From Escherichia phage UE-S1, in sequence record ON568341.1: DNA of 64,000 nt; one strand, 5' to 3'. The translations under genes and the position numbers were made by a program. Of the stretch, positions 6,737 to 56,276 are shown piece after piece. Every line of letters begins with the position of its first letter. Position 1 is the stretch's first letter. The notes beneath the pieces are model-generated. The model had not been told where the DNA came from. It searched no databases and was given only the letters and a program-made list of their open reading frames with translations.

Positions 6737-7330
6737 ATGAAAAAGAATGAATTAGATGAAGCAATTAAAGGTTTATCTAATGTATGTTTTAGTGGCGGGG
6801 CAGCAGGTGCTGACCGCCTTTTTTCAATCTATGCAAAAAATAATGGATTTGAAGTTATTAATTTTTCATTCAAAGGTCATGTGCATAGTGTAGATGAAAG
6901 CACCATATTAGAAATACCATCCAATATTTTATCTGATATTTCTATATTAAATCAACTAAACATTGCATGTTATTCGTTGCAGCGAAAAGTACCAAAGCCT
7001 GGTTCATATGTTTACAACTTACTTGCAAGGAATAGTTATCAGATACTTAATACAGAAAGAATATATTGTATTGCAAATATTACATCGCCAACTAAGGTAA
7101 GTGGTGGTACTGCATGGGCAGTACAGATGTACATTGATTCAGTTGAAAATCCAGAAATTTATTGTTATGATATGAATTCACGTTCTGTGTTTTACTTCGA
7201 TACAGAACTGAAAGAGTTCAAACAATCATTCGTGGTTCCACCACCACATGGTAACTGGACTGGTATTGGTTCACGCAATGCAACAGAAAAACATATGGAA
7301 CATTTTATTACATTTTTCAAGGAAGAATAA
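6737..7330 (+). CDS. Rossmann-like protein with GGAxGxD motif (SLOG / LOG-DprA-like nucleotide-binding fold); function unknown
   Basis: N-terminal VCFSGGAAGADRLF resembles the glycine-rich loop of SLOG-family proteins; stop overlaps the thyA start (TAATG). Confidence 0.45.
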   Translation: MKKNELDEAIKGLSNVCFSGGAAGADRLFSIYAKNNGFEVINFSFKGHVHSVDESTILEIPSNILSDISILNQLNIACYSLQRKVPKPGSYVYNLLARNSYQILNTERIYCIANITSPTKVSGGTAWAVQMYIDSVENPEIYCYDMNSRSVFYFDTELKEFKQSFVVPPPHGNWTGIGSRNATEKHMEHFITFFKEE

Positions 7331-8883: not shown

Positions 8884-8886
8884 ACG

Positions 8887-8917
8887 AAAAGGGAGAACAT
8901 CAGTTCTCCCTTTTTTA
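8887..8917. terminator. Bidirectional rho-independent terminator between convergent genes
   Basis: A-tract, GGGAGAAC-atcag-TTCTCCC hairpin, T-tract. Confidence 0.7.
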
Positions 8918-11188
8918 TTATCTAATTGTTACCAACGTTCTTCCGTCGAAACGTACATCAGGAGTTGAAGGTATACTGAACACTACGTTAGTGCCGTTAA
9001 ACGTCACGCTATCGACCTCAACACGAGTATAGACACCTGGACTAACCTGTTCCTGTATCTCTGCTGTGACGATGTTTGAGGCTGTTACAGTAAGGGTGTA
9101 GTAGTTACCACTTAATACCCAAGATGAAATGGTAAATGCATCGGTTCTTACTGAACCTGAACCAATTGGAACCCATTGACCTTGAACTTTTTGCATTGAA
9201 GTACGCTCGGTATTGGAGTATGCAATCATACCATCAACACCAACAGAGTTATCAATAGTAGCTAGTACTGGTAATTGAATACCATATCTATTGAAACGTG
9301 TTCTAATAATTCCATTATCATAGATACTTACATCAGCATAATTCCCCATTGAAAGTTTCAAATCTGAATCAACTAATTGCATTGTACTTTGGTTAGTAGG
9401 GCTTTCTAAAGTAATTATTCCATTTGGTAATAAGCTTAAGTTTTTAAATTTATTCGAATTACCATTAAAATTTGTATTAGCGTTGAAAGTACTAGTTCCA
9501 TTAACTACTATTGTGTTTTCTGCGGCATCACCTAATATTGTATTTCGTTGAACAATCAAGTTACCATTAGCAGTAATATTAGTCGCTGTAGTATCACCAT
9601 TTAATTTTGTATTAGCGTTGAAAGTACTAGTAGCATTAACTACCAATGTGTTTGTTGCGTTGTCACCTAATATAGTATCACTTTGAACATTCAAATTACC
9701 ACTAGCAGTAATATTAGTCGCTGTGGTATCGCCATTTAATTTACTTGTACCATCAACTACGATATTACTATTAAATTTCGTATTAGATTTAAAAGTACTA
9801 GTAGCATTAACTACCAATGTGTTTGCTGCGGTGTCACCTAATATTGTATTGCTTTGAACATTCAAATTACCACTAGCAGTAATATTACTAGCTGAAGTAT
9901 CACCAATTAATCTACTTGTACCATCAACTACGATATTACCATGAAAATCGCTTTCACCGTTTTTAAATTCCACTTGTACCGAATACATAGAACTAAATGA
10001 AATTATATTACTACTTGCACTTATACCAACATTAGTATTAGTTGGGTTATCGAAGTGTAATATTGGAGTTAATGCTGGTGTTGTTGTTGTTTGATAGAGC
10101 GTTAATGATGAGTTGTTAATTCGCACACGTTCTGTTCCGGCAGTACTAAATCCAATAGCATCATCAGCAGGATGAAAAATACCAGTATTAGTATCAGACC
10201 ATTTTTCAGGATCATTACCAGGATTACTTGTTGGGTCGAATGGTTTATTATTAAATGCTATCGCTGGTGCGGAAGCACTCCCATATACAACACCAAAACG
10301 ACCAGACCCTATTGTACCATCATCATACATTGAATCGCCTGTTCTACGTAAACATTCAATTACAACATTATCTATGGAAGTTTGAACTGTACCAGCATTA
10401 GTTCTGAATTGACGATTATTTGCAATCATAATAGTGTTATCATATAACACAGAAGCTGCTGAAATACTTGTTCTTGATTGACGAAGGCGTATGTTTTTAT
10501 CTTCAGTAATAATAATCCAATCACCATCAGATAGTGCTGTTTGATTCATTGGCACACCGGAAGCAAACGGCTTAGTTAAATCATCATCAGTTGCTAAATT
10601 AACAAGTCCACTATGCCCAGTACTAGGGATGGAAGTTGAAATAATTCTTGCAAAAGCGTTTGTTACGAGCTTTGCACCAGATATATTTGGATTAGAATCA
10701 ACATAATATAAAATTTCAACCCAATTCCCCTGTCCAGTTGGGTTAGTTGGAGTAAATGTTACTGGGCTGGTTTTTGGTTTATTCGCTTCAAAATGTGCTT
10801 GGGCGGCATCCATAATACCACGCACAACATAATAATCACCACTAAGTGATGATGAGGGTGCAGGTAGTGGGCTTTGGGCTAACGGTGGGTCAATATCATC
10901 TGGAATCGGATTATATGTACCAACAAACTGTAAACCACTAGTTACTGAATCTGGTAATTGAGATGTAAGAAGTTTACCATTTGCATCTAAGTTAGCGAAA
11001 CGCCTGTATGCCATTGAACCATCTTCAAAATCCAGAACACCCTCGAACGATTTCCATGCTTTATTGTATCTAATCATCCCTGATCTTATTACATCAGCGG
11101 TTTCTTTTGATGGTGCTTTTGGTAATTCTAAAAAAGATTTACTATCAATAATTACACCACCATCACCTCTAATTCGATTTATACTCAT
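8918..11188 (-). CDS. Tail fibre protein, repeat-rich (distal fibre-like)
   Basis: 756 aa; several tandem ~45-aa repeats (NITASGNLNVQS-TILGD-A-NTLVVNATSTF); Thr/Asn/Ser/Gly-rich. Confidence 0.6.
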   Translation of the reverse strand: MSINRIRGDGGVIIDSKSFLELPKAPSKETADVIRSGMIRYNKAWKSFEGVLDFEDGSMAYRRFANLDANGKLLTSQLPDSVTSGLQFVGTYNPIPDDIDPPLAQSPLPAPSSSLSGDYYVVRGIMDAAQAHFEANKPKTSPVTFTPTNPTGQGNWVEILYYVDSNPNISGAKLVTNAFARIISTSIPSTGHSGLVNLATDDDLTKPFASGVPMNQTALSDGDWIIITEDKNIRLRQSRTSISAASVLYDNTIMIANNRQFRTNAGTVQTSIDNVVIECLRRTGDSMYDDGTIGSGRFGVVYGSASAPAIAFNNKPFDPTSNPGNDPEKWSDTNTGIFHPADDAIGFSTAGTERVRINNSSLTLYQTTTTPALTPILHFDNPTNTNVGISASSNIISFSSMYSVQVEFKNGESDFHGNIVVDGTSRLIGDTSASNITASGNLNVQSNTILGDTAANTLVVNATSTFKSNTKFNSNIVVDGTSKLNGDTTATNITASGNLNVQSDTILGDNATNTLVVNATSTFNANTKLNGDTTATNITANGNLIVQRNTILGDAAENTIVVNGTSTFNANTNFNGNSNKFKNLSLLPNGIITLESPTNQSTMQLVDSDLKLSMGNYADVSIYDNGIIRTRFNRYGIQLPVLATIDNSVGVDGMIAYSNTERTSMQKVQGQWVPIGSGSVRTDAFTISSWVLSGNYYTLTVTASNIVTAEIQEQVSPGVYTRVEVDSVTFNGTNVVFSIPSTPDVRFDGRTLVTIR

Positions 11189-11229
11189 TTAAATATTTCC
11201 TCAGAATAGATTATATATGATGTATTTAT

Positions 11230-11267
11230 TTTAGATAAAAGAAAAGGCCAAGTATAGACTTGGCCTT
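11230..11267 (-). terminator. Rho-independent terminator downstream of the 11273-12052 gene
   Basis: AAGGCCAAGT-ata-GACTTGGCCTT hairpin followed on the minus strand by a T-rich tract. Confidence 0.6.
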
Positions 11268-11272
11268 GAAAA

Positions 11273-12052
11273 TTATTTAGTACGTTCAGGTATATCAATA
11301 CCTTCATATACCCAACTCGCAGCTTGTTGTGCTTTATAAATTGCGTTCGGGTCGGAATCATCAACTGCATCAATTGCTTCACATTGTTTATCACAATCAG
11401 AAAATAGTTTTTCAACCATTGCTAATGATTCAGTATATAGCTGTGTCATTTCTTCTGCTGTTAGTTTTACTATAGCATCATCAAGAATAATAGTAACTTC
11501 ATGAGCACCAGACACAACTTGTGTATAATAATTAAGGAGCATTTGGCGACCAGCAAGATCTGTATTATAACGATGTTCTTTGAATACATAACCAGCATTA
11601 ATTCGATTAGTACGTTCTGATAAAGTTCGTTCTTTCAAATCTTTTTTCACATCAGAAATTGGTACATCGACATAATTGTATGTTTTAAGAACAGTCAATG
11701 CTTTATATTCATCAGTTGCATCTTCTAAAAATTCAACTACTGGTTGTTTTTCATCTTTTAATCGAACATATTCCAATGGTTGATCATTCTTATTTACATT
11801 ACCTACATTTTTATATTCTAACCACCAAAAACCTTCTTCTTTTCTTACCTCATCATTTGGTTCTACTGGAGAACCATCATAACTGGAAATACCATACAAA
11901 GTTCTAATATCGCTATAAAGATAGCGATAGGTCTGTGAATCATCAGGAATTGCACCTGGGCGTTCTTTAAGACCTTTAACACCGATTGGGTTTGAGATGA
12001 TACTACCCAATTCATAGTTTTCCTTTGAATTACCTTTCACATATGTGAACAT
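11273..12052 (-). CDS. Hypothetical protein between two fibre genes (possible fibre hinge or assembly component)
   Basis: 259-aa ORF; assignment is by position only. Confidence 0.45.
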   Translation of the reverse strand: MFTYVKGNSKENYELGSIISNPIGVKGLKERPGAIPDDSQTYRYLYSDIRTLYGISSYDGSPVEPNDEVRKEEGFWWLEYKNVGNVNKNDQPLEYVRLKDEKQPVVEFLEDATDEYKALTVLKTYNYVDVPISDVKKDLKERTLSERTNRINAGYVFKEHRYNTDLAGRQMLLNYYTQVVSGAHEVTIILDDAIVKLTAEEMTQLYTESLAMVEKLFSDCDKQCEAIDAVDDSDPNAIYKAQQAASWVYEGIDIPERTK

Positions 12053-12117
12053 ATAACTACCTCACTTGTTACGATGGTGTCACCCAAGTAAGGTGACACC
12101 TTTTATTATAATTATTA

Positions 12118-15100
12118 TTAAGCAGTACGTTGAGCAATAAACATATCTGCTACTGAACTTACACCATCATAAATTACTTGATAGATAGTTACAGAGTTTG
12201 CAGTTTTGTTAAGTGTTCCATCAACTACAGCATATGTACCATCGGTAGTAAAGTTTCTATTACCTGTTGTATCTTGTTTAACATAAATGTATACTGAAGA
12301 TGCTTTACCACCACCAATTAGACCAGTGATAGGTGCTAGTGTTGTATCTTGATCAAGTGTGATGAAGTATACGTTGCTAGTTCCGTCAGGTGTCCAAGTT
12401 CCAGAAGGTGCAATAACAGAAGAAGTTACTTGATTTGGTATAACATCATATTTTTTGGTAGTTACTTTTGTTGTAGTGAAGTCTGCGTTGGTTGTAGATA
12501 AATGACCTGTGACAGTTACACCCTTGTCAAATACTGCATTTTCTTTGAAAGAAGATGTTGCATTAACAGTTAATGTATCAGAATCAGAATCACCTAACAC
12601 AACACTACCATTTGCTGTCATTAAACCAGTAACAGTTAGTGTACCGCCGATTGTAGCTTCACCAGTTACAGATGCACTAGCAAGTGTAGCTGCACCAGAT
12701 GTTGTAATGGTGGTAACAGTAGCGTCTTCAAGTGTAATACTTGATGCAGTTAATTTTCCATCAACCGTTAGGCTACCAGTAACATTCGCACCAGCCGACA
12801 TAGTTACTGCTCCACCAAATGAACCAGTGGTCATGACTTCAAGGGTATTTCCTTTAAGTAATTTAGTTGCAGTTATATTTTCACCAGCAGTAATACTAGT
12901 ACCAGCAGCAACACCATTGGTTGCAGTTAATGATTTAACAGCCACGTCAGAGTTTGATTGGTTTAGTGTTGCGTTTAGAATGCCAGTTACAGTGAAGTCA
13001 CCGTTGTTAACTACGTTACCGTTGATTGTTAAGTTATTGTTTTTAGAACCAACATCACCGATGGTTGCTGATTTAGAAATCAATTCTGCACCAGATGTAA
13101 TGTTACCTGCGGCACTAATAGTGTTAGCTGCCTTAACTGCATAAGGTTCAATAGTTTGACCACTAACATCGATATCAGCATTAATACCACCATCAACACG
13201 TAAAGAACCAGCAATGTAAGTATTAGGGAAAATTTGAACAGTTTCTGAGTGTTCACCAACCTGTGTACCAATAATAACAGATGAACCAGTTTTTATTGAA
13301 CCTTCAGATGTTAGTGCTCCCACTGTTGCTGTGCCAGTAACGTTTAGTTTGCCACCAACTTTAGCGTTATTAGTTACTGTTAACGCTATATCATCACCAT
13401 TAAGAGTCATTGATGATGCAGATGCGTTTCCAGTAACATCGAGTGTACCACCAATAGTTGCATTGCCATCAGAATGTAGAGTTTGTGCAACAGAAAGACT
13501 GTTTGCAACCACATCAGTACTGGTCAAATCCAATGCACCCGGTGTTAATGTACCAGTAATGTTAACATTATTACCAAATGTTGCTGCCCCAGTAACATCT
13601 AGGGTAGAGCTAAATGTACCAGAAGTTGCAGAGATTGAACCAGATTCTAGTGAACCAACAGTAGTTTTTCCAGTTACACCTAGTGTACCACCAACTGTTC
13701 CATTTGTTGTAACTTCTAATGTTCCAGTACTTAGATCTTTCGCTGTAACTTTGTCAGATGCGTTAATAGTTGTTGTTGTAACACCACCACTTAGGGTGCT
13801 TGCACCAGTAACACTGAGTGTTTTAGCTGCACTAACGCTGTTTACGTTAAGATCTGCACCAGATAGGTCTAAACCACCTTCAGGAATAAATTTACCCTTA
13901 ACGGTTAGTTGTTGAACAGAACTGTCACCAGTAACATCCAGTGTAGAAGCAGTTAGACCACCATTCAGGCTTGCTTCCCCAGTAACATCTAGGGTAGTTG
14001 TTACAGTCGCACTGTTAAGAGTGGAGTTACCGGAAATATTAGCACTTGGTGCAGTGATTGAACCTTTATCAACTTGTACATCACCAGAAACAACTTTAAT
14101 ACCACCAGCATCAACTGTTAGTTTTTCGGCAGTGTTCAAAGTACTTGAAATTGTTGTTGCACCAGTTAAGGTTGTGGTTCCTGCAACACTCATGTTTCCA
14201 GAGATAGATGGATTACCTGTAATGTTACCAGTAGTTAGAACCAAGTCAGTACCTACAGTAGTGGAACCAGTACTTTCTAATGTTACACCGACAATATTTG
14301 CAGATTTAAGGTCAATGGAGCCATCAACAGTCAAGTTACCATGTACTGTTGCATCACCGAGTGAATTTAATGATTTCACAGAAACATCAGTTTTACTAAG
14401 GTCAATTACACCAGCAGTAAGTGTTCCAGATACTGCCAAATCACCAGTAATTGCTGTATTTTTAGTAATAGATACAGTTTCTGATGCTGACGTAATTGAG
14501 CCAACAGTAAGTGCACCACCAATGGTTGCATTGTTAGTTACAGTTAACGCTGTTTCTTCACCAGATAGTGTTAAAGAAATACCATTCATTTCACCAGTAA
14601 TATTTGCAGATGCCGCAGAAATATCGCCAGCAACTACCGCATTTGTTGCGTTTAGAGTTGTTGTAGTAATTTCAGTACTTTTTACTTTAGGAAGTGCGTT
14701 GATACCATCTTTACTATTAACTGTAATAATACCAGAACTTGTTAGCGATTTAACAGAAACATCTGCACCACTTAAGTTAACTGTTCCAGAAACAACTAGA
14801 TCGCCACCAATATTAGCACCTTCTGTTGTAGTGATTGATTTTGCATTAACTTCAGTTTGGCTCAAATCAATTGTACCAGGTGATACAGTTCCAGAAACAG
14901 TAAGATTACCAGTAATGGTGGTATCATTAGAAATAGATACACCATCATCATTACTAATTGTTGGGGTTTCAATAGTAACAGCTTTAACTTTACCTGAAGA
15001 AGTCATATCAGCAACAGTTGATGTACCAGTAACCTTTAGATTAGTAATATTTGCAGTAGTTGAACCAAGTGTAGTAATAGTACCATCAGTACTTTCTAGT

Positions 15101-17601
15101 TTAGGAAGAACACTAGCAATAGAAGATTCTTTACTAACAATTGCACCAGTGCTGGTTAGTGATTTTGCAGTTACATCAGCATTAGTAAGGTCAACTGTTC
15201 CATTAACGGTTAGATCTCCCCCAACTGTTGCACCAGCAGTAGTAGTAATTGAATTAGCATTAACATCTGCTTTAGTTAGATCAATTGAACCTGGAATGAT
15301 TGCACCAGAGACAGTTAGATCACCAGTTACTTTTGTATTATTAGCAATTGTAATTCCATGTTCATTGGAAATATTAGGAGTTACTAATGAAGGAGTAGTA
15401 GTTACGCCAGATACATTTAATGTTGTACCAACTAATACACTTGATAGATTAGATTGTCCAGTTACGTGAAGTTCATCTGCATTAACAGTTGTGATAGTTG
15501 CAGTTGTACTTTTAAGTACTGGGAGTACGTTTTCGGACACACTATCATTGCTTTTAATAACACCAGAAGTAGTAAGTGATTTAACATTAAGTTCGGCTTC
15601 TGATAAATCAAAAGAACCTTTAACTACGAGGTCACCACCTACTGTTGCACCAGCAGTAGTAGTAATAGATTTTGCATTAAGTTCGGCTGCACTTAAATCT
15701 AGTGAACCAACAGTTAAGCTACCAGTGATATCAACATTTTCAGTAAAGGTAGTCTCCCCACTAATCGTTGGGGCAGTTAAACTCGTCGCAGTGATATTAG
15801 TACCTTTGATTGTTTCACCACTTAATGTACCACTAGCAGTAATAGTCGGTGCGGTAACTTCTGTAGATGCACTAATTGTTGGTGCGGAAACCGAAGTTGT
15901 ACCAGTAATAACACCAGAACTTACTGATCCAGCAGATAATGCACCAGAAAGAGTTGCAGTTGTACCAGTAATATCACCAGTGACAGTTAGTGCTCCACCA
16001 ACAGTAGTATCACCTGTACTTTCCAAAGTTGCACCTTTGACATGTTCGGCTGCCACAACTGATTTTGGTGTTAAATCTTGTCCACTAACGTCAACGGTTA
16101 AACCAGTTACTTTACCAGTGAAATCAACATCATTAAGAATTGCCTTACCACCAACTTGTAGGAATGGTGTACTTGGGTCTTGTGTTTCGTTACCTGTAAT
16201 TGTTAGATAATCTAATTTGTTTAGACCATTACCAGTAATACCATATGTTGATAGTGATGCATTGCCAAATGTTGCAGTTTTAAGAACTTTCAATGTAGCT
16301 GGAGAAACCAACTCAGATTGAACTTCATTCGGTAAAATAACAGTTGGTCGTTGTTCTGGTGTAGTATATGCAAAACCGAGTTTAACCGCTGGGTCTTGAC
16401 TATTTTTACCTAAACTGATAGATTTGAAAGTTGCAGTACCGTTTAAACCAGTAATATTAGAACCTAGTGTAACACCACCCACCAATGAAGTAGTTCCTGA
16501 TACATTCAATGTGGTTGCATTAATATCATCCAACTGGAATTCGCCACCAAGAAGACCAGAAACATTAATGTTATTAAAATTAGCTGTGCCAGTACTTTCA
16601 ATATTTGGGATAGTTGCAGTACCAGTAACTTCAAAATCAGCAACTTTAGTTTTACCTTTTTTTACTTCTAGAAGTGGTGTGTCTGGTGATTGAGTATCGT
16701 TACCAGAAACAGTTAGATAATCTAATTTGTTTAGACCATTACCAGTAATGCCATAGGTTGGCAATGATGCATTACCAAATGTTGCAGATGTCAAAACAGT
16801 CAATTTTGCTGGTGACATTAGTTCAGATTGAATTTCGTTTTGTAGAATTACAGTAGGACGCTTATCTGGGGCACTGTAAGGAAAGCTTAGTCTAAAGGTT
16901 TGTGATTCAGAGTTAGAGCCAATACGGATGTCTTTAAATGTAGCAGTACTATTAATACCTGTTACATTAGCACCAAAAGTTACAGCACCTTTTTGGTTAG
17001 ATGCACCAGTGACGTTCAATGTTTCAGCATTCAAATCAGAAAGATTAAACTCACCGCCTAGTGTACCATTAATGTTTACATCGTTGAATTCAGCAGTACC
17101 AGTGCTTGTAATATCAGTTGTAGACATAGTTGTGATTTCTGCGGAATTAGCAGTAATTTTATCAAAAGCAGCAGTTGTACCAACATCAGCAGTTAAGTTA
17201 CCTTTAAGTGTTGTTACTTCATCAACTTCTAAGCTTTTTACTTTAGTTTCTTGTAGTGCTGTTGACCCAGCAGTTTGTGTAAAATCACCACCAACTGACA
17301 CAACACCGTTAAATGTAGCATTTGCATTGATTGTTGCTGTATCAGAACCACCATCTTCACTACCGATAGTAGTGTTACCTTTAACATCAAGACCACCACT
17401 TAGTGTTGCTTTTCCAGCAACATCTAATGTAGATGTAATATTGGCAGTTTCTGTTTCAATGGCAGTAAAAGATGCATTTGCAAAAGATATACTACCATTT
17501 ACAGTTAGGTTATTCTTGAATACAGCATTCCCTTTGACTAAAAGATCCTTACCAACCGTGCCAGCACCAGTAATATCTAAGTCAGTTTTTATTGAGTACA
17601 T
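12118..17601 (-). CDS. Large tail fibre protein (proximal long-fibre-like) with internal tandem domain duplication
   Basis: 1827 aa; Thr/Gly/Ser/Asn/Val-rich; repeated DLSKADVNAKSITTTAGATVGGDL-type modules; ~500-bp direct repeat in the DNA. Confidence 0.65.
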   Translation of the reverse strand: MYSIKTDLDITGAGTVGKDLLVKGNAVFKNNLTVNGSISFANASFTAIETETANITSTLDVAGKATLSGGLDVKGNTTIGSEDGGSDTATINANATFNGVVSVGGDFTQTAGSTALQETKVKSLEVDEVTTLKGNLTADVGTTAAFDKITANSAEITTMSTTDITSTGTAEFNDVNINGTLGGEFNLSDLNAETLNVTGASNQKGAVTFGANVTGINSTATFKDIRIGSNSESQTFRLSFPYSAPDKRPTVILQNEIQSELMSPAKLTVLTSATFGNASLPTYGITGNGLNKLDYLTVSGNDTQSPDTPLLEVKKGKTKVADFEVTGTATIPNIESTGTANFNNINVSGLLGGEFQLDDINATTLNVSGTTSLVGGVTLGSNITGLNGTATFKSISLGKNSQDPAVKLGFAYTTPEQRPTVILPNEVQSELVSPATLKVLKTATFGNASLSTYGITGNGLNKLDYLTITGNETQDPSTPFLQVGGKAILNDVDFTGKVTGLTVDVSGQDLTPKSVVAAEHVKGATLESTGDTTVGGALTVTGDITGTTATLSGALSAGSVSSGVITGTTSVSAPTISASTEVTAPTITASGTLSGETIKGTNITATSLTAPTISGETTFTENVDITGSLTVGSLDLSAAELNAKSITTTAGATVGGDLVVKGSFDLSEAELNVKSLTTSGVIKSNDSVSENVLPVLKSTTATITTVNADELHVTGQSNLSSVLVGTTLNVSGVTTTPSLVTPNISNEHGITIANNTKVTGDLTVSGAIIPGSIDLTKADVNANSITTTAGATVGGDLTVNGTVDLTNADVTAKSLTSTGAIVSKESSIASVLPKLESTDGTITTLGSTTANITNLKVTGTSTVADMTSSGKVKAVTIETPTISNDDGVSISNDTTITGNLTVSGTVSPGTIDLSQTEVNAKSITTTEGANIGGDLVVSGTVNLSGADVSVKSLTSSGIITVNSKDGINALPKVKSTEITTTTLNATNAVVAGDISAASANITGEMNGISLTLSGEETALTVTNNATIGGALTVGSITSASETVSITKNTAITGDLAVSGTLTAGVIDLSKTDVSVKSLNSLGDATVHGNLTVDGSIDLKSANIVGVTLESTGSTTVGTDLVLTTGNITGNPSISGNMSVAGTTTLTGATTISSTLNTAEKLTVDAGGIKVVSGDVQVDKGSITAPSANISGNSTLNSATVTTTLDVTGEASLNGGLTASTLDVTGDSSVQQLTVKGKFIPEGGLDLSGADLNVNSVSAAKTLSVTGASTLSGGVTTTTINASDKVTAKDLSTGTLEVTTNGTVGGTLGVTGKTTVGSLESGSISATSGTFSSTLDVTGAATFGNNVNITGTLTPGALDLTSTDVVANSLSVAQTLHSDGNATIGGTLDVTGNASASSMTLNGDDIALTVTNNAKVGGKLNVTGTATVGALTSEGSIKTGSSVIIGTQVGEHSETVQIFPNTYIAGSLRVDGGINADIDVSGQTIEPYAVKAANTISAAGNITSGAELISKSATIGDVGSKNNNLTINGNVVNNGDFTVTGILNATLNQSNSDVAVKSLTATNGVAAGTSITAGENITATKLLKGNTLEVMTTGSFGGAVTMSAGANVTGSLTVDGKLTASSITLEDATVTTITTSGAATLASASVTGEATIGGTLTVTGLMTANGSVVLGDSDSDTLTVNATSSFKENAVFDKGVTVTGHLSTTNADFTTTKVTTKKYDVIPNQVTSSVIAPSGTWTPDGTSNVYFITLDQDTTLAPITGLIGGGKASSVYIYVKQDTTGNRNFTTDGTYAVVDGTLNKTANSVTIYQVIYDGVSSVADMFIAQRTA
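16150..17150 (-). repeat. Tandem direct duplication (~504 bp unit, two copies) inside the 1827-aa fibre gene
   Basis: GTTAGATAATCTAATTTGTTTAGACCATTACCAGTAAT... occurs at ~16205 and ~16709 with long flanking similarity; protein module ITGNGLNKLDYLT... repeated. Confidence 0.7.
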
Positions 17602-17684
17602 TTATACCCTCCATGATAACCTTGTTAATATGTATATATTTAGTTTTATTCTTCTGTTAACTAATAATTTGTCAAAATAAAAAA

Positions 17685-17715
17685 CCAGACTTATTGATAA
17701 CAAGTCTGGATTCAT
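17685..17715 (-). terminator. Rho-independent terminator
   Basis: CCAGACTT-attgataac-AAGTCTGG hairpin followed on the minus strand by a T-tract. Confidence 0.5.
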
Positions 17716-17717
17716 TT

Positions 17718-18617
17718 TTACTTACCAGAGATAACAATCTTCCCACTGAATGTAACATCAGAAGTAAAGATTACGTCACCAGTATTGCTAATTTGTGTGC
17801 CAGTTACTACCAATTCAAATGGTGATGTCGAAACACTACCAGGTGTCTTATTTGCATAAATCGAAACATACAAATTTTCTGGTGATTGTTTGTGTTCAGA
17901 TGCTGGAATTGTGATGGTGAACTCATCTTTATTAGAAATCCAATCATCTTGGTTTATCAATTTACTATAAGGTACTGTCATTGTTGTTGCTCCTATAATG
18001 TTTACTATAACATTTATATAATCCGTAATTTTGCCAATTGCATCTATTGTAATATCACCAGCACCGTTCACTACTACAGATGTTTGAAATACTGAATCCA
18101 ATGTCCTACTACCAGGAGAATCACCATGTAGTTGTATCATGATATCAGGCCCACGCCCATGTACAGATGCTGGAATGGTGTATGTATAATGGTCGGTAGT
18201 ATCTGGTACTAATGTAAATGCAGATACTGGTACAGTTTCAGTTGTTACATATGAACTATCAGTTTCATGTGAACTACCTTTGAATGATTTCCAAATACCA
18301 AGGTCTTTAATATAAATTTGAAGAACATTAGTTTCATCAACTAAAAAATACACATCACCATCTGACCCAATAGATTCATCCGGGGCACTGGTCCCACGCA
18401 AAATACCAGAACTACCAGTGCCACTATGTGCGTTTAGATATCCTAACGTAACTAGATGTGTGTTAGCGGTCGGGTCACCTGCTGAAATTGGAAGAAGTTT
18501 TGTTCCTGAGTAGTTTTGTATTTGCACGACACTACCATTTGTGGTAATCTGTGCACCATTCTTCCCAAGAATGAAGGATTTCTTCATTGTTCCTTCTAAA
18601 TTAGAAAAAACTGCCAT
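17718..18617 (-). CDS. Tail fibre or tailspike protein sharing an N-terminal module with the next gene
   Basis: N-terminus MAVFSNLEGTMKKSFILGKNGA... parallels MAVFSNFEGTMKPKMILGKNGA... of the 18634-20775 protein. Confidence 0.55.
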   Translation of the reverse strand: MAVFSNLEGTMKKSFILGKNGAQITTNGSVVQIQNYSGTKLLPISAGDPTANTHLVTLGYLNAHSGTGSSGILRGTSAPDESIGSDGDVYFLVDETNVLQIYIKDLGIWKSFKGSSHETDSSYVTTETVPVSAFTLVPDTTDHYTYTIPASVHGRGPDIMIQLHGDSPGSRTLDSVFQTSVVVNGAGDITIDAIGKITDYINVIVNIIGATTMTVPYSKLINQDDWISNKDEFTITIPASEHKQSPENLYVSIYANKTPGSVSTSPFELVVTGTQISNTGDVIFTSDVTFSGKIVISGK

Positions 18618-18633
18618 TTTAATTTAATCTCCT

Positions 18634-20775
18634 TTATGGTAGGGTTATATACGTTACTGGCTGGGCAGCTTTTAATGATGCACCAGCGGCAGTTGCTGTT
18701 ATGATGGGATCTGCAATATCAATTCTATATACATTATTAACAACATATACTGCACGAGTTATATACGTTTTCAAATCATCACCATTTTCCCCAGCACCAG
18801 ATATAATGATCTCAGTACCAGCCGCTTTTGCATATTGGTTATCACCCCATGACACACCCAATGCTTCTATATACGTTTGTCCTACTGTCGTTTGTCTAAT
18901 TGTGTCATATTTTCCAAAAAATGAACCACCCACTGTTACAATATATTTTCCACCAGATTTTTTATGTATAATCGTCCCTTCTGGGAAGTATCTTCCTCCA
19001 GGAAAAGTATCATATGGAATATAATATTGCTCAACTACAGGTATTAGTACTGGACCACGGTGACCAGTACCGTCAATTGCAGTTGTTACTTTGAAATTAT
19101 TAGATGATTGATCGATTCTATCTACGTACATTTTAGAAAAACTATATTTTGAAACATTACAATCATCTTGAACAACACAGTTAGTCCAATTAGTATAAGT
19201 ATATTTAGAGCGAGTATACATACCCCCACCTTCACCTTCAGTGGAAAGGTGTTGTCCTATGACATCTAATTCTTTTGTTCTGATATCACTAAATTTAGAT
19301 GAAGATGGTAGACCACGCCAAAGAATTTTAGAACAAGTAATATTACTTAATTCTGTACTATTCAACCAATTATCCGATCCAGAAGTATAAACGATTACGG
19401 AAGACTCTGGTATATAGAGATTGGATATTTTAAAGTTTCTAGGTGGACCAGCAAATCGACCACCAGTTACACCCCAGTTAATAGATACCATACGGTTTGT
19501 GACTGTAGGATCATTAAGTAAATGTCCGGTTAAACCATCAATTACAAACTCTTTTGAACCATAAGTTATTACACCAGCAGTTGTTAACCCAGTACCAACG
19601 GAAATTAAAGATGATGGGTACACCTCATTATCAAGTATTTTGAAATCCATTCCCAATTCGACATGGATACATTGTCTAACATTATAAAGTCTATTATTCT
19701 TAATAACAAAGTTTCTAACATATTGTGTATCAGGGGCATCCAAATCATAAGGACCAGACCCAGCAACACCAATACCAATACCCCAGTTTGAAAGCGGGAT
19801 TGGTGCATCAGAACCATCAACATTTTCAATTATATTACCTTCAATTACAAAACCATCAGGATAATGTGAGTTAATAACGTTCAATTCAATTGCATCCCCG
19901 TAGATATCATGAATGTGGTTGTATGAATAACGACCAACCTTCATTTTCTCACCAGTTCCTTGTTGGAGAACGCCATATTTACATTTAGTCATTTCATTAA
20001 AGCAAAAATCTATTGTGCCAGATTGGGTCATACCTTGCATTAAGAACGCAGCAGTACTGGTAATGTTAATAAATTTATTAAAATAAAATTTACCATCCCC
20101 GCCAAAGAATTTCAAATAACAGCCAGTAAGTGTGGTGAATTGAATTTGTGAATTAATAACGGATATCATAGTTCCACCATTACCCGTAATAGTGCCACCA
20201 AACCAAGTTACATCTTCCAAATATACTGCTTTTTTGATACGATAATTACCACCTGCTTGAATTTGTATTTTATTTTCTTTTGCATAAGTTGCACACAAAT
20301 TTACAGCTTCAGTGTCATCGGTTTCCCCATCACCTTTCGCACCAAATTCTTCTGGTGTTATATAGAACTGTGCTTGTTGAACTGTACCGCCAGTAACAAG
20401 GCCAATGAAATCACCACCATTTTTACTTGATAGTGCTTTTTTATTAATGTAGAGTGATTTAATCCAAGTACCATTAGTTTTTACGAAGATATCAACAATA
20501 CCATCTTCATCAATTTGAAAATAAGTATTATTATTTTTTCCAATATCATCTGACGGTGATTGAACACCAAATAATGCATTTGGATTATCTTCAAGGTATC
20601 TAATATTAACTGCTGAATCTTGGTCTGATGGTGTTCCTACTTTTAGTGGTAGAAACTTTTCACCTAGATAATCTTTTATCGATACGGAATCATTGACGAA
20701 ATTTATCGAAGCACCATTTTTACCCAATATCATTTTTGGTTTCATGGTCCCTTCAAAATTAGAAAATACTGCCAT
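18634..20775 (-). CDS. Tailspike-like protein with pectate-lyase-type beta-helix signature (possible depolymerase); start moved to the internal ATG
   Basis: EEFGAKGDGETDDTEAVN motif; ATG at 20775 preceded by AAGGGGGGTG; the track N-terminal extension would overlap the upstream gene. Confidence 0.6.
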   Translation of the reverse strand: MAVFSNFEGTMKPKMILGKNGASINFVNDSVSIKDYLGEKFLPLKVGTPSDQDSAVNIRYLEDNPNALFGVQSPSDDIGKNNNTYFQIDEDGIVDIFVKTNGTWIKSLYINKKALSSKNGGDFIGLVTGGTVQQAQFYITPEEFGAKGDGETDDTEAVNLCATYAKENKIQIQAGGNYRIKKAVYLEDVTWFGGTITGNGGTMISVINSQIQFTTLTGCYLKFFGGDGKFYFNKFINITSTAAFLMQGMTQSGTIDFCFNEMTKCKYGVLQQGTGEKMKVGRYSYNHIHDIYGDAIELNVINSHYPDGFVIEGNIIENVDGSDAPIPLSNWGIGIGVAGSGPYDLDAPDTQYVRNFVIKNNRLYNVRQCIHVELGMDFKILDNEVYPSSLISVGTGLTTAGVITYGSKEFVIDGLTGHLLNDPTVTNRMVSINWGVTGGRFAGPPRNFKISNLYIPESSVIVYTSGSDNWLNSTELSNITCSKILWRGLPSSSKFSDIRTKELDVIGQHLSTEGEGGGMYTRSKYTYTNWTNCVVQDDCNVSKYSFSKMYVDRIDQSSNNFKVTTAIDGTGHRGPVLIPVVEQYYIPYDTFPGGRYFPEGTIIHKKSGGKYIVTVGGSFFGKYDTIRQTTVGQTYIEALGVSWGDNQYAKAAGTEIIISGAGENGDDLKTYITRAVYVVNNVYRIDIADPIITATAAGASLKAAQPVTYITLP

Positions 20776-20788
20776 TATGACACCCCCC

Positions 20789-21916
20789 TTAAATATTATC
20801 TTGAATAGGTTGGACCGGAGCTTGCCATGAAAGAGTACAAATAATTTCCATTTTACCATAAGGACTATTATTAACTGAATCATTGAATACACATGAAATA
20901 ATTTCATCTACATCTGAAACTTCATGATTTGTTTCATTAACAATAAAACGCATCTGGTGATTAATATCAAAGTAGGATGTTGGTGCAATGACAGTACCAC
21001 CAATATTTTCGTTTGCTTCACCACCGAAACGAACAAACATATCGGTTACTGGAATGGAGTAAGGTTGAAGAATATTTACATCAATATTTGAAACCACATA
21101 ACCAGCAGGACAAGTTCCTATAACCAATAGTGCGTTTGTCCATGAATGGTCAATGATATTTCTTATAGAAATTGTATCTTTACCTGGTGCACCCGGTTCA
21201 CCTTGCTTACCTTGAATACCTTGTGGACCTTCTTTACCACGGAATAAAATACCACTACTCCATTCTTTTGATGGTGGGGTGGTAGTTGTTACTTCATCTA
21301 CATAATAAAGTTTACCATCAGTGTTGTTATAGAAACAATAATCAACTGGGAGGTTTTCTATGCTTGGAAATTGATCACCACTACCGTCAATATGGAAACG
21401 ACCACGTGGACCTTGCTCGCCACGGAAAGGAATACCATCACTCCATGTTGCTGTTACTTTTTGATAAAAATATAATTTACCATCTTGTGTATTGTAAAAT
21501 GTATAGTTATCAAAAAGACCAGAACTTGGAAAATTAGTTCCCGCACTATCGATATGAAAAGGCTTACCAGCTTCACCAGTATCACCTTTACCAAATTCTA
21601 CACTAATCCATGTACTGGTTTGTTCTTGTGCATCATTTGATTTAAAATACAAAGTACTTGTGTTATTTGCCAAGCTAAGGTAGCACCAACCAAGTGGTTC
21701 ACCAACTTTGAATTTATCAGACGGAACTTCAAAACCAATCTCGTTTGGATAAAAGTTCTTACCGTTTTCACCATTTTGTCCTACAACAAGACCTAAATCT
21801 TGAATTGTATTATCGGTATAGGTTACAATTAAATGACCAGCAGCATTAATAACTAGACTTTTGATGCCGGAGTTATTACATGAACCACTGGACCCATTGT
21901 TAAATGAAATTGTCAT
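20789..21916 (-). CDS. Collagen-like repeat-containing tail fibre protein
   Basis: Gly-X-Y triplet runs (GQNGENGKN; GEQGPRGR; GKEGPQGIQGKQGEPGAPGKD). Confidence 0.6.
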   Translation of the reverse strand: MTISFNNGSSGSCNNSGIKSLVINAAGHLIVTYTDNTIQDLGLVVGQNGENGKNFYPNEIGFEVPSDKFKVGEPLGWCYLSLANNTSTLYFKSNDAQEQTSTWISVEFGKGDTGEAGKPFHIDSAGTNFPSSGLFDNYTFYNTQDGKLYFYQKVTATWSDGIPFRGEQGPRGRFHIDGSGDQFPSIENLPVDYCFYNNTDGKLYYVDEVTTTTPPSKEWSSGILFRGKEGPQGIQGKQGEPGAPGKDTISIRNIIDHSWTNALLVIGTCPAGYVVSNIDVNILQPYSIPVTDMFVRFGGEANENIGGTVIAPTSYFDINHQMRFIVNETNHEVSDVDEIISCVFNDSVNNSPYGKMEIICTLSWQAPVQPIQDNI

Positions 21917-22025
21917 ATTATTTCCCTTTTATGAGTTAATGTCATATACCAATATTTATCAGTACAAAATACATTTCGTCGCCATTAATAAATAAATGAA
22001 AGTTCACTACTAAAAGGGCTTAACA

Positions 22026-22523
22026 ATGGCATTAAGATCAAAAAACTTTCTTTTTAAAAGAAAAACAAAAGATGGTTCATGGCAAGATTTTCCTGAATCC
22101 GATAGTTGGTATCCAGCTAATTTGGATTATCTTTGGAATGAACAAACATTACCACTGGCAAGTGGTGGCTACTATGGTAGCACTACTGGGTTGCATACCA
22201 TTTCATTTACACTACGTAATTTTATTGGTAGAATTTATGTATTAGCAACATTAGCTAGTAATCCGACTGACGATGATTGGTTCCCAATTAAATTCACTGA
22301 AAGTTGTAAATATTATCTTGAATTTACTGATATGGTTATTTTAAATCCAAACGGCGGTGATTTAATTAGACAACAAGGAACTACCGGAACATTTGCAGAA
22401 ACAGTGACAGGCAACTTTACATATATTAAAGTTGGTATTGATCGTGATTATATTAGTAAGTACCCGTCTGATGTACAAAAAAGTTTAGCGGGTAAGTTAG
22501 AACAAATTTTAATTAACTACTAA
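22026..22523 (+). CDS. Hypothetical protein
   Basis: 165-aa ORF; first of three co-oriented plus-strand genes. Confidence 0.45.
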   Translation: MALRSKNFLFKRKTKDGSWQDFPESDSWYPANLDYLWNEQTLPLASGGYYGSTTGLHTISFTLRNFIGRIYVLATLASNPTDDDWFPIKFTESCKYYLEFTDMVILNPNGGDLIRQQGTTGTFAETVTGNFTYIKVGIDRDYISKYPSDVQKSLAGKLEQILINY

Positions 22524-22532
22524 GGATTAGAA

Positions 22533-23141
22533 ATGAAATTAGAAGCAGAACAACCAAAACTATTCGTTAAAGGTCATGTACTAATTACCGACGTTACTGA
22601 TCCATCAAATCAAAAGGTCGTTTTAGATAAATCTAACGCTATTCACCCAGAAAATATGAGTACTGCAATTGCTAATGCGTTAGCATATAATCAAGATAGC
22701 ACAAGTATTCCTATTGGTTCGATTAGCGAGATGCGTTTTGGTAATGGTGGTACGGTAGTGTTAAGTACTGGTCGTGTCACTTACAAAAAACCACGTGTCA
22801 CTTCATTTGGTGGTTTGTATTCACAAACATATTTGAAAAAAATTAACCCTAGAATCACCGCTGGCATTGATTCACAATATAATAATATAACAACCGTGCA
22901 TATCCCAGGACAATCATATACGGACATTGTGTGCATTTGTACTCTTGGTTTAGGTGAACCATCAGACCAAGGTGTAAGTTCAGGTACAAGTATGGATGGA
23001 ACTTATGTATTTGACGAATTGGGTCTATATACTGATGGTGATAGCGGTATTCCGTTGACACATATCATTTTTCACCCAGTTGAGAAAAGTGCAAATCGTG
23101 TGTTGCAAATTAAATACACAGTTCGTGTACAACTACAATAA
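22533..23141 (+). CDS. Hypothetical protein
   Basis: 202-aa ORF with AAGGA ribosome-binding site. Confidence 0.5.
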   Translation: MKLEAEQPKLFVKGHVLITDVTDPSNQKVVLDKSNAIHPENMSTAIANALAYNQDSTSIPIGSISEMRFGNGGTVVLSTGRVTYKKPRVTSFGGLYSQTYLKKINPRITAGIDSQYNNITTVHIPGQSYTDIVCICTLGLGEPSDQGVSSGTSMDGTYVFDELGLYTDGDSGIPLTHIIFHPVEKSANRVLQIKYTVRVQLQ

Positions 23142-54711: not shown

Positions 54712-54740
54712 TAAAGGGAGCCTTAGCTCCCTTTTTTTAC
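54712..54740. terminator. Bidirectional rho-independent terminator overlapping the 3' end of the minus-strand gene
   Basis: AAGGGAGC-ctta-GCTCCCTT hairpin followed by T7. Confidence 0.6.
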
Positions 54741-55214
54741 ATCAACCATATTTAATTTACCGTCCTTAATCAGCTTTCTAGCTTGTTTTGCACGAGTAGT
54801 AGTGTTACTGCCAGGGACAACTCCGAACCCTTCCAGAATCTCGTTTTGCTGCGTTGCTGGGAGCCTTTTAAATTTATTAGTATCCACTGTTAGTGCCGTG
54901 TGATGTATAACTTGCTCTTCTGGTGGAATATTATTGTTCTTTTCAAGGTAGTCAGCAAGGTTGCGTAGTACTTCATGCAATGGCTTATCTGTTAAATGAC
55001 TAAGACAGCGTTTAAATGAATTTGCAACCCTTCCTTCCCATCCATTCACCTCATTTTGAAGAACCTGTCTACAATGTTGATTTCCACCATGATAGTGATC
55101 CAGAACTGGTTTAGTTATTTTTATGCCTATGATGGGGTCAATGCCATTTTGTTTATTTAGCAATTCAGTTCGATAGTTTGCAGCATCCTTACTATCTTTT
55201 AATCTTTTTTTCAT
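54723..55214 (-). CDS. Endonuclease VII-like His-Me finger nuclease (candidate junction resolvase)
   Basis: LDHYHGGNQHCRQVLQNEVNGWEGR resembles the T4 endonuclease VII HNH-like core as I recall it. Confidence 0.45.
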   Translation of the reverse strand: MKKRLKDSKDAANYRTELLNKQNGIDPIIGIKITKPVLDHYHGGNQHCRQVLQNEVNGWEGRVANSFKRCLSHLTDKPLHEVLRNLADYLEKNNNIPPEEQVIHHTALTVDTNKFKRLPATQQNEILEGFGVVPGSNTTTRAKQARKLIKDGKLNMVDVKKGS

Positions 55215-55305
55215 AATTCCTCACCAAACTATTTGTCATCACAATATTTATAGATTAGTTATTTGCAATATTTTAAGTACTTAATGAATATTTTATAAAA
55301 ATAGT

Positions 55306-55333
55306 GAGACAACTTTAAAATTTGTGCTATAAT
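55306..55333 (+). promoter_or_regulatory. Sigma70-like promoter: GAGACA, 16-nt spacer, TGcTATAAT, firing into a non-coding block
   Basis: GTGAGACAACT plus TGCTATAAT; near-identical architecture to the promoter at 5766-5793. Confidence 0.45.
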
Positions 55334-55339
55334 ATTTGT

Positions 55340-55787
55340 TGTAGTAATGACAATCCTGTTGAATGCAGAAATGCATATAAATGAGAACCTGATCCTATCG
55401 AAAATGTAGATGGCAGATGAGCAGTTCAACAGTGCGATGAGCAGAAGAAACCCGTCAGATGTGGGCATAGTTTGAACCCCTCACGGCAATGCGGCTCAAT
55501 AAAGAACTCCGATAAGCATACAGAGAGTTCCTAGATAGACATATAAGGATCGCACCTTACCAGATTTGCTAAGGGAGTTTATTAAGTGATTTTAATAAAC
55601 AGCCTGAAGTTTGATTGTATAGACTTTCAGGTGAGTGTCAGGATGATTAAGACTGACGACCGTTGCATATGACCGTGATAGGGAGAAACCGAGCAACCCG
55701 CTTCCGTTTGCGATTGATCTTTTTACAATATAGATCCGTCCAAAATTCACGATACAATAAATGCTGAAACCATCAGCGTCAAGAAAT
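55340..55787 (+). ncRNA. Candidate ~450-nt structured non-coding RNA of unknown class
   Basis: Bounded by promoter 55306-55333 and terminator 55787-55810; visibly more G+C-rich than flanks; only short ORFs; local inverted repeats. Confidence 0.3.
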
Positions 55788-55810
55788 AGAGACTTCATTG
55801 TCTCTTTTTT
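55787..55810 (+). terminator. Rho-independent terminator ending the candidate ncRNA
   Basis: TAGAGAC-ttcatt-GTCTCT hairpin followed by T5. Confidence 0.4.
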
Positions 55811-56017
55811 ATTGTCTTCATTCCCCTGCGGGGGGATGAAAATGTCCTCAACAAATCCCGTCAAGTATTAAATCTTTTAAAGTTCTTTATAATTAATTTA
55901 ATGAAATGAATATGAGTTACGTAGTAACGAATATTCTTCAGCTAACGAATGAAATGAGTTAGATGAATCCAATAATATTAAAATTAATTCTTCCATAATT
56001 CAATTCAAATAATTCTG

Positions 56018-56046
56018 TAGTTTAATGAAAAAAAAAACCAGCAACA
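56018..56046 (-). terminator. Rho-independent terminator downstream of the 56067-57112 minus-strand genes
   Basis: CCAGCA-caatgt-GCTGG hairpin followed on the minus strand by T10. Confidence 0.6.
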
Positions 56047-56066
56047 ATGTGCTGGTCGTGTGGGAT

Positions 56067-56276
56067 TTAGTGCTTCTCGTTTTGTTTTTTAATTTTTTTA
56101 TTAAAAGACTTAACTAATAAGTCTCTATCTATTAATGGCATATTAAGAAGTGTTCCGTAATCAATATTATCCATATACACAGAACACTCCATTAGTGCAT
56201 TTTTGATTTCTGACTTATTCAGTTCTATCTCCTTCAGTACTTCTTGTATTTCTTCAGGAGATGACTGGAGAAGCAT
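56067..56276 (-). CDS. Small hypothetical protein
   Basis: 69-aa ORF whose start overlaps the upstream stop by 1 nt. Confidence 0.45.
   Translation of the reverse strand: MLLQSSPEEIQEVLKEIELNKSEIKNALMECSVYMDNIDYGTLLNMPLIDRDLLVKSFNKKIKKQNEKH

Follow-up and report, generated by a model that had tools for sequence, protein, structure and literature searches.

Comparative evidence for an uncatalogued family of large structured non-coding RNAs in Rak2-like jumbo phages and enterobacterial prophage-like elements

Large structured RNAs of undefined role are rare in bacteria and phages; the main examples are OLE, GOLLD, ROOL and raiA, each of which has opened structural and functional work. Two of them, ROOL (RF03087) and GOLLD (RF01998), exceed 500 nt, contain several pseudoknots and are encoded by phages and prophages with no associated protein gene. 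In both, covarying 'kissing' interactions connect loops to linkers (PMC12286853). Here we describe an intergenic locus of Escherichia phage UE-S1 (sequence record ON568341.1), analysed within a stretch of 64 kb that we refer to as the window. An otherwise empty gap in this window very probably holds a plus-strand gene for a structured non-coding RNA, and with the same high confidence we regard this gene as the member of a genuine RNA gene family. Like ROOL and GOLLD, the RNA is large and multi-pseudoknotted and occurs in phages and prophages without a dedicated protein gene.

The window is ~94% identical (blastn) to Asteriusvirus jumbo phages such as 121Q, PBECO4 and G17. A preliminary description, made from the sequence alone, had drawn attention to an ~850-bp gap between minus-strand genes, richer in G+C than its flanks and free of tRNA T-loop motifs and of open reading frames (ORFs) above ~90 codons. 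It placed a plus-strand extended −10 promoter at one end of the block and a hairpin with a T-tract at the other, and read the whole as an autonomous structured RNA gene of unassigned class. A covariance-model scan and comparative folding were named as checks, and a conserved short protein-coding ORF in homologous loci as a refuting observation. The gap measures 852 bp (55215-56066) and is without a credible ORF. Its left neighbour is a minus-strand ORF of 163 aa (54723-55214), annotated as endonuclease VII in 121Q, PBECO4 and G17; on the right, a minus-strand 69-aa ORF (56067-56276) is followed by a baseplate-hub ORF. G+C is 0.40-0.42 over 55300-55800 versus 0.245-0.29 on each side, the longest ORF in the gap has 90 aa (minus strand, 55592-55864), and ARAGORN finds 0 tRNA or tmRNA genes in the window. 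Folding gave z = −3.69 for the plus strand and z = −2.91 for the minus strand. These features agree with the preliminary description, and the class of gene it proposed is borne out by covariation including pseudoknots, by a promoter of its own, and by the lack of a conserved ORF and of any Rfam match, as detailed below.

By blastn the region is kept at 71-80% DNA identity, at the same place after endonuclease VII, in distant Rak2-like genera: orthologues are present in the Salmonella phages 7t3 and Munch, Cronobacter phage GAP32, Pectobacterium phage CBB, Serratia phage BF, Yersinia phage fHe-Yen9-04, Erwinia phages and Xanthomonas phage XaC1. Such conservation is far above what a non-coding spacer would be expected to show. 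Further members were sought in IMG/VR, where a 14-mer pattern scan gave mostly chance matches and was replaced by a degenerate pattern scan, 26 of whose 84 pattern matches were GC-rich coding chance matches. Together with a profile search, the degenerate scan gave 74 matches, 53 of them unique and full-length and all on Rak2-like contigs. The nhmmer profile identified 74 IMG/VR and phage loci, 8 bacterial contigs and 82 metagenome loci with E-values from 1e-47 to 1e-150, and metagenome and genome scans brought the total to 101 unique members, which fall into 36 clusters. The family is present in every Rak2-like jumbo phage searched and, among cultured phages, is confined to this group; no member was found in the plasmids searched.

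Comparative folding of the relatives revealed strong compensatory covariation. RNAalifold, applied to 53 sequences, gave 59 pairs, 37 of which show compensatory changes. Covariation scans of 53 and of 101 sequences recovered the same helices and, in addition, three long-range pairings (PK1, PK2 and PK3). The tested model comprises 93 pairs in 20 helices and was compared with 500 shuffles and with slid partners. The fraction of cells paired was 90.4%, versus 73.0% for the shuffled controls (0 of 500 reached the observed value) and 38-45% for slid partners. The covariation score was 0.433 as against 0.166 after shuffling, and slid partners did not rise above 0.109. Double changes were found at 72 of the 93 modelled pairs (786 cells). 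The conserved core, as delimited by the nhmmer profile and the alignments, is ~525 nt long and extends on the plus strand from the presumed start to the invariant 3' motif CUCAACAAAUCCCGUCAAG (55341-55865). Weak spots of the model are the 5' hairpin, P8 and the P5a hairpin, which are variable or poorly aligned.

The 5' domain (55354-55575) is closed by P1, in which UCC (55354-56) pairs with GGG (55573-75); this helix varies on one side only, from C-G to U-G. The helices of the domain, P7 (55544-48 with 55555-59) among them, were identified by RNAalifold and pair counts. A GAAA-capped 5' hairpin (55363-55376) is paired in 40.6% of cells and is poorly aligned. The helices that follow are far more regular: P2 (55389-55416) is 94.7% paired with 7 of 8 pairs covarying, P3 (55421-55435), P4 (55438-42 with 55494-98) and P5 (55452-55 with 55483-86) are each 100% paired, and P6 (55504-08 with 55526-30) is ~95% paired with all five pairs covarying. 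Within this domain PK3 joins AUG at 55489-91, located in the GGCAAUGCGGC loop, to CAU at 55540-42; it is 98% paired, and two of its three pairs show double changes.

The second part of the core contains P9, a 12-bp hairpin (55601-55632; 89.9% paired, 11 of 12 pairs covarying) whose 8-nt loop (55613-55620) bears the 5' strand of PK1. In PK1 the loop sequence AUUGUAU (55614-55620) pairs with AUACAAU (55752-55758), which lies directly 3' of P11. All seven pairs covary and 99.6% of cells are paired; at least eight sequence variants of PK1 occur, every one of them complementary. Pairing within one molecule and pairing between molecules would both fit these data. P11 (CGUGA 55674-78 with UCACG 55747-51; 100% paired, 4 of 5 pairs covarying) encloses P12 and P13. 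P12 pairs GGGAG (55681-85) with CUUCC (55701-05), again at 100% and with 4 of 5 pairs covarying, and its loop contains the sequence GCAAC (55693-97) that forms PK2 with GUUGC (55662-66) in the invariant GACCGUUGC (100% paired, 3 of 5 pairs covarying). P13 is a sequence-conserved hairpin module, GCGAUUGAUCUUUUUACAAUAUAGAUCCGUCCAAAAUU (55707-55745). This module (...UACAAUAUAGAUCCGUCCAAAAUU) relocates among members, for example to a position after UAAGGGAG in GAP32, and some members have two. Relocation is a behaviour typical of peripheral tertiary or protein-binding modules, and the combination of GNRA-capped hairpins with a relocatable hairpin module is typical of large tertiary-folded RNAs. 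At the DNA level, the conserved GAUC within UAUAGAUCCGUCC of the P13 module and its equivalents is a Dam site.

The core ends in a 3' module (55821-55865) present in 53 of 53 aligned members. It consists of the hairpin UUCCCC-UGC-GGGGGG (55821-55835), AUGAAAAUG and CUCAACAAAUCCCGUCAAG (55847-55865). The hairpin is 97.4% paired and all its variation is C-to-U on the 5' arm, which preserves pairing as G-U on the plus strand but would leave A-C mismatches on the minus. In all, 294 G-U cells were counted as opposed to 80 A-C cells. Both asymmetries indicate that the functional molecule is made from the plus strand.

Coding by either strand finds no support in the alignments. No ORF, start codon or frame is conserved among the family members, and the preliminary description's refuting observation was thus not made in the homologous loci. 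Taking the longest ATG ORF of each member, the median is 53 aa and the minimum 25 aa. The 'starts' that recur are TTG or GTG codons lying within invariant RNA motifs, and the ORFs they open span 12 to 101 codons. The 90-aa minus-strand ORF of the window is not conserved among members, although a protein homology search with it was not run. The Shine–Dalgarno-like UAAGGGAG was considered as the ribosome-binding site of a mini-ORF and rejected, since the downstream ORFs are not conserved and its GGG pairs with the 5' YYC as P1. Several GenBank records (7t3, Hallingskeid, E9.1, SHEFM2K, JP4 and others) annotate three to five tiny 'hypothetical proteins' across the RNA; these are almost certainly spurious ORF calls.

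The promoter proposed in the preliminary description is present at 55306-55333 on the plus strand: a −35-like GAGACA (55306-55311), a 16-bp spacer and the extended −10 sequence TGcTATAAT (55325-55333), matching the consensus at 10 of 12 positions with the TG extension. Transcription would start near 55340-55341. By itself the match is not above chance, as the window contains 9 promoter-like sites versus 6.9 ± 3.0 in shuffles; terminator-like sites are enriched (6 versus 1.1 ± 1.1). The significance of the promoter lies in its conservation across relatives, not in the match within an AT-rich window. The same architecture, GRRAC(A)-N16/17-TGnTATAAT/TATACT, is found upstream of 53 of 53 aligned copies, and a regex count detected the extended −10 (TGnTATAAT/TATACT) in 88 of the 97 members with enough upstream flank, 44 of these 88 having a 17-bp spacer after the GRRAC box (TGAAAC/GAGACA). 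The TGAAAC −35-like box is that of the 'divergent RpoD-like promoter' class of CBB and GAP32, which also serves DNA-synthesis genes (PMC5259590). In c3-type members, one of the paralogue groups described below, a perfect hairpin with U6 (e.g. GGACGAUGCGAGAGCACCGUCC-UUUUUU) separates the −10 from the RNA core. It was seen at L015:42750-42810 (c3 of 121Q), at L010:905-975 and upstream of loci L033, L060, L164 and L172, and could be a leader terminator or attenuator or else a 5' protective stem. The motif UUUUUUAAUUGAG recurs in the same promoter-to-core stretch.

The 3' boundary differs from the one first proposed. The preliminary description had ended its block at the T-tract; a hairpin AGAGACTTCATTGTCTCT (55788-55805) followed by U6 (55806-55811) was detected there by the terminator scan, starting 455 nt past the −10, but the conserved RNA continues beyond the T-tract for at least 55 nt and probably for ~155 nt. 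A T-tract hairpin (T5 or longer) is found in ~40 of 91 members and is missing from ~51 of 91. Paralogues c3 and c4 lack it, as do the XaC1 and Kaldavass copies, and temperate copies have a hairpin at the site without the U-tract. Among c1 and c2 copies its stem covaries. Because it is missing in many members and the conserved 3' module lies beyond it, the T-tract is probably a partial terminator at most; rather than the end of the gene, the element may well be an internal hairpin that members can do without, or one that terminates only part of the transcripts. This optional hairpin, the multiple paralogues and the occurrence in prophages are features that could not be seen from the window alone.

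Downstream of the core, a probable 3' extension (55908-55965) is semi-conserved and poorly aligned. It includes GAAUAUGAGUUAC-GUA-GUAACGAAUAUUC (55908-55936) and a CUAAC-loop-GUUAG hairpin (55942-55962, within 55939-55965). Jumbo phage and prophage copies have a looser module at this place, made up of an ATAAATA-like late-promoter motif, GAAUUGAG, a hairpin with a ACGNAGUGA loop, AAAAUUC and a UUGAC-NNNCG-loop-CGNNN-GGCAA hairpin; the last hairpin of the extension covaries. The RNA would thus measure about 525 nt as a core and about 625 nt with the 3' hairpins. An 11-codon ORF, ATGAATCCAATAATATTAAAATTAATTCTTCCATAA (55963-55998), follows directly after the last 3' hairpin, and elsewhere, in other paralogue groups, the counterpart of this hairpin directly adjoins the start codon (ATG) of a genuine downstream gene. 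Further on, a bidirectional terminator-like hairpin (ACCAGCA-loop-UGCUGGU, 56036-56057), which the scan detects for the minus strand, separates the RNA unit from the convergent minus-strand genes and is kept in c1 copies of other genera, several with a plus-strand U-rich tail too. The plus-strand transcript could reach as far as this hairpin at most.

The covariance-model scan was carried out with Rfam 15, whose 4227 families include ROOL, GOLLD, OLE, raiA, HEARO, pRNA, RNase P, tmRNA, 6S, group I and II introns, riboswitches and self-cleaving ribozymes. At gathering thresholds, 0 matches were obtained over the whole window. At E ≤ 10 the region 55200-56100 gave chance-level small RNA matches only, none over the core, and at E ≤ 0.5 the element remained free of matches in 15 loci that contain orthologues and paralogues. 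Several resemblances were considered and set aside. As regards a group I or II intron, the RNA is bordered by the start of one gene and the end of another, both on the opposite strand, the copies have their own promoters and no intron model matches. A hammerhead core (GAUGAG ... GAAAC, seen by eye) misfits in register and conserved positions. The segment ACAGAGCAACCCGCUU faintly resembles CR-V of the RNase P CR-V/P4 pairing, yet it forms the local covarying hairpin P12 with PK2. Likeness of the 3' module to boxA/boxB and rrn leaders is limited to short AT-rich word matches, and a hok/sok-like type I toxin-antitoxin system does not agree with the lack of a conserved start codon, frame or length on either strand. 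Full-text searches and targeted reading of the literature found no description of this RNA. For PA5oct, a distant relative, four ncRNAs have been defined by RNA-seq (PMC7318152). The family profile (nhmmer --max) gave no match on PA5oct 7800-23000 (best E = 1.6), so that, of the four, ncRNA001 and ncRNA002 were rejected as homologues.

Each phage record matched by blastn contains four to five matching places, and complete Rak2-like genomes in IMG/VR likewise give 4-5 pattern matches each. With all filters off, nhmmer finds exactly four diverged paralogues in a 121Q-type genome; GAP32 has at least four. The four copies of 121Q are all on the plus strand, in gaps annotated as empty: c1, the locus of the window, after endonuclease VII at 326.6 kb; c2 in an intergenic gap at 247.4 kb; c3 before a DNA methyltransferase gene at 192.8 kb; and c4 after a sigma-factor gene at 90.3 kb. 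The window itself contains c1 only. Each paralogue is located at an orthologous position across genera, which indicates that the paralogues are old and have been retained. In this way the family accounts for four 'empty' intergenic regions of 0.6-1.4 kb in every Rak2-like genome, where records are blank or carry spurious small ORFs. Directly 3' of the c1 unit, plus-strand genes are present in Yen9-04 (L009:1628 onward; adenine methyltransferase) and XaC1 (L005:2140-3071; two hypotheticals), and the same spot in the window faces convergent baseplate genes; the 3' flank of the RNA unit appears to be a gene-insertion hotspot. A further annotated-empty gap of ~2 kb in 121Q (135.2-137.2 kb; L014:35195-37160) has no similarity to the RNA family.

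Eight bacterial contigs contain true members (E 1e-82 to 1e-93). The carriers are Serratia fonticola GTA-SR07 (a complete chromosome), Serratia sp. 2723, Silvania hatchlandensis, Enterobacter chinensis and Enterobacteriaceae RIT714, a Buttiauxella and an Enterobacteriaceae metagenome-assembled genome, and a mis-binned 2.8-kb contig. At least 12 loci show a recurrent order, as revealed by Pfam and tblastn: an integrase gene, one copy of the RNA on the same strand, a convergent gene for a CI-like repressor with helix-turn-helix and S24 domains, and a conserved 286-aa ORF. The integrases beside the RNA fall into two unrelated groups, large serine recombinases and tyrosine integrases, and the prophage-like copies have no co-directional gene downstream. 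In one metagenome-assembled genome the RNA is located between host thiM/thiD and cI. Pfam was uninformative for the neighbouring hypothetical proteins, and tblastn of 14 prophage and island neighbours against a 121Q-type genome, in search of a protein partner common to the contexts, gave only an unrelated DUF4326 homologue.

In S. fonticola the RNA is at the very edge of the element, next to a duplicated host rof gene. The two rof genes (rof encodes a Rho-termination modulator) are 97.7% identical and flank the element edge (L228:4775-5490), which suggests integration into rof with restoration of the target; the element also carries a large serine recombinase gene and two ParB/RepB-like genes. 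Among E. coli genomes a copy was found in 2 of 5426 complete ones, in a 1.4-kb unannotated gap within a 10.5-kb island between ffs, the 4.5S RNA gene, and ybaA. The island of strain LR-29-1 (L318; NZ_AP027515.1 3472142-3486515) contains an IS3-disrupted integrase gene, the RNA, and genes for hypothetical, DUF4326, DUF488 and dual-OB proteins, and RefSeq leaves the gap with the RNA blank. In prophage and island contexts without the CI-like repressor, at least three ATCGATCGAT-type palindromes are clustered just upstream of the next gene (L225 ~7100-7300, L318 ~8100-8250 and, downstream of the RNA, L245). These clusters resemble the operators or iterons of another kind of immunity or replication module.

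We propose, as the reading we consider reasonably probable, that the RNA acts in trans as a stable, compactly folded RNA particle, by itself, self-assembled or bound to a host factor. The locus of the window is copy c1 of an uncatalogued non-coding RNA family whose members would each be transcribed on their own. Transcription would start at a promoter readable by the host polymerase, with an extended −10 behind a GRRAC box; the RNA would fold into two domains joined by at least three long-range pairings (PK1, PK2 and PK3), and the particle may bind a host factor common to Enterobacterales. Action in trans is suggested because temperate and c1 copies lack a co-directional gene that they could regulate, the paralogues have unrelated neighbours, and no neighbour protein is common to jumbo and temperate contexts. 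The genes next to the four paralogues differ, and c1 copies face convergent genes. Transcription and stability, trans action and a binding target are what we infer from these comparisons. Several points weigh against the proposal. In every member the transcript, its ends and its stability are deduced from sequence; a canonical hairpin with a U-tract lies within the conserved unit in ~40% of members and might cut the RNA short; alignment is poor for the 5' hairpin, for P8 and in part of the 3' extension; and no partner, ligand or catalytic activity was found for the RNA. Several paralogues have their 3' hairpin right next to the ATG of a co-directional gene, and at least such copies could also serve as 5' leaders.

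On this reading the RNA is neither an mRNA nor a cis-regulatory leader nor a DNA site, and the evidence bears on these alternatives to different degrees. A cis-acting 5' leader or expression platform, controlling the next gene by antitermination (as HK022 put or EAR), RNA stabilisation or translation control, would explain why the RNA unit always begins right at the promoter and why many copies precede co-directional genes, a GGAG-bearing terminal hairpin even abutting the ATG in one paralogue group. Also in its favour, terminator-like hairpins lie within the unit in c1 and c2, and in c3 between the promoter and the core, and would have to be read through. However, temperate and c1 copies have no co-directional downstream gene and converge on cI or baseplate genes, the downstream genes differ between paralogues, and a late-promoter-like ATAAATA often separates the core from the downstream gene. 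As a 525-nt core with three long-range pairings also far exceeds any known cis antiterminator, we regard the leader as rather improbable. More improbable still is an origin primer RNA, in which a persistent R-loop would prime the leading strand as in ColE1 RNA II or T4 oriF/oriG, several copies meaning several origins. The 4-5 copies per genome are similar in number to T4 origins, the TGAAAC promoter class also precedes DNA-synthesis genes in CBB, the invariant G6 run is followed by AT-rich DNA, and ColE1 RNA II is structured and of similar size. Conservation and covariation, however, reside in a pseudoknotted fold and not in a DNA unwinding element; the position of prophage copies between int and cI is unusual for an origin, and GC skew tracks gene and transcription orientation only, with no inflection at the copies. 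Hardly any credence can be given to a DNA-level element (pac, att, operator or recombination hotspot) or to a decayed or very small coding gene. Repetition within phage genomes and proximity to integrase genes and att sites in integrative elements would suit the former, but the flanking integrases are of two unrelated types, compensatory changes keep 20 helices, the G-U to A-C asymmetry of 294 versus 80 cannot stem from recognition of duplex DNA, and neither an ORF nor a start codon is conserved.

A special case of the trans-acting particle is self-assembly from RNA only: PK1, and perhaps other contacts, would be intermolecular and the RNA would form homo-oligomers like the nanocages of ROOL and GOLLD. 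The kissing interactions of these RNAs, predicted by covariation, proved to be intermolecular bridges (PMC12286853). PK1 links an apical loop to a linker 130 nt away, no partner protein is common to the contexts, and PK1 differs among all four paralogues in the 121Q-type genome, in Yen9-04 and in one metagenomic genome, as expected if cross-assembly is avoided. Against this, GAP32 and CBB have two or three paralogues with the same PK1, so orthogonality is no rule, and sequence alone cannot separate intra- from intermolecular pairing. Self-assembly seems unlikely, if less so than a leader function. Equally tentative is a wider view of the family as a third class of giant self-assembling phage RNA beside ROOL and GOLLD, the first in E. 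coli-type hosts. Each paralogue might build its own particle, of RNA only or of RNA and host protein, via an intermolecular PK1; jumbo phages might deploy four to five of them early, prophages might express one constitutively from the int-cI region, and the particle might capture or shield a component of the host or of a rival phage.

The retention of ancient paralogues and the temperate capture at a lysogeny module both speak for a role in infection or in the conflict of phage and host, one that annotation has overlooked. With ~100 distinct members, and compensatory changes at 72 of 93 pairs, comparative support for the family is strong, and its carriers are tractable: cultured phages of E. 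coli K-12-compatible hosts (121Q, PBECO4, G17, Sharanji and others) and prophages of Serratia and Enterobacter. If the family is confirmed, these traits would make it useful, as genetics, RNA-seq, pull-downs and cryo-electron microscopy can readily be done with such carriers.

Several known systems share single traits with this RNA. HK022 put and EAR also lie directly after a promoter, with terminator-like hairpins downstream in the same transcript; these elements, however, are 70-120 nt long and always precede their target operon, whereas many copies of the present family have no co-directional downstream gene. ColE1 RNA II is a structured transcript of ~550 nt from a constitutive promoter, and T4 oriF-oriG resemble the family in occupying several loci per T4-type genome and in having middle-class promoters. 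In contrast to both, GC skew gave no evidence of an origin here, the prophage position is atypical, and three covarying long-range pairings constrain the fold far beyond any known requirement of a primer. PeSLs (promoter-stem-loop cassettes) are short promoter and hairpin repeats that act at the level of DNA recombination. As repeated, promoter-bearing intergenic modules heading variable gene cassettes in T4-type phages, they recall the c1 3' flank of Yen9-04 and XaC1 with its extra inserted genes, but the RNA unit described here exceeds 600 nt and covaries at the RNA level.

The packaging RNA (pRNA) of phi29 is likewise a phage-encoded, promoter-driven structural RNA, its covarying loop-loop pairing is functionally essential, and the copy in the window is located in a packaging and morphogenesis region beside endonuclease VII. 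Unlike the present RNA, pRNA is 174 nt long, single-copy and limited to phi29-like phages; there is no Rfam match between the two, and the other paralogues and the int/cI prophage copies lie outside packaging regions. ROOL and GOLLD share with the RNA the features given at the outset, yet neither covariance model matches it. Its hosts are Enterobacterales and Xanthomonas, not Firmicutes and others, and it is not placed beside tRNA islands, the nearest 121Q copy being ~12 kb from a tRNA cluster. It also differs in its fold and in having four to five diverged paralogues per genome. As a family of sequence and structure the RNA is new, with no Rfam model and no describing paper found; as to its kind, it belongs with the few large ornate RNAs that phages and prophages encode.

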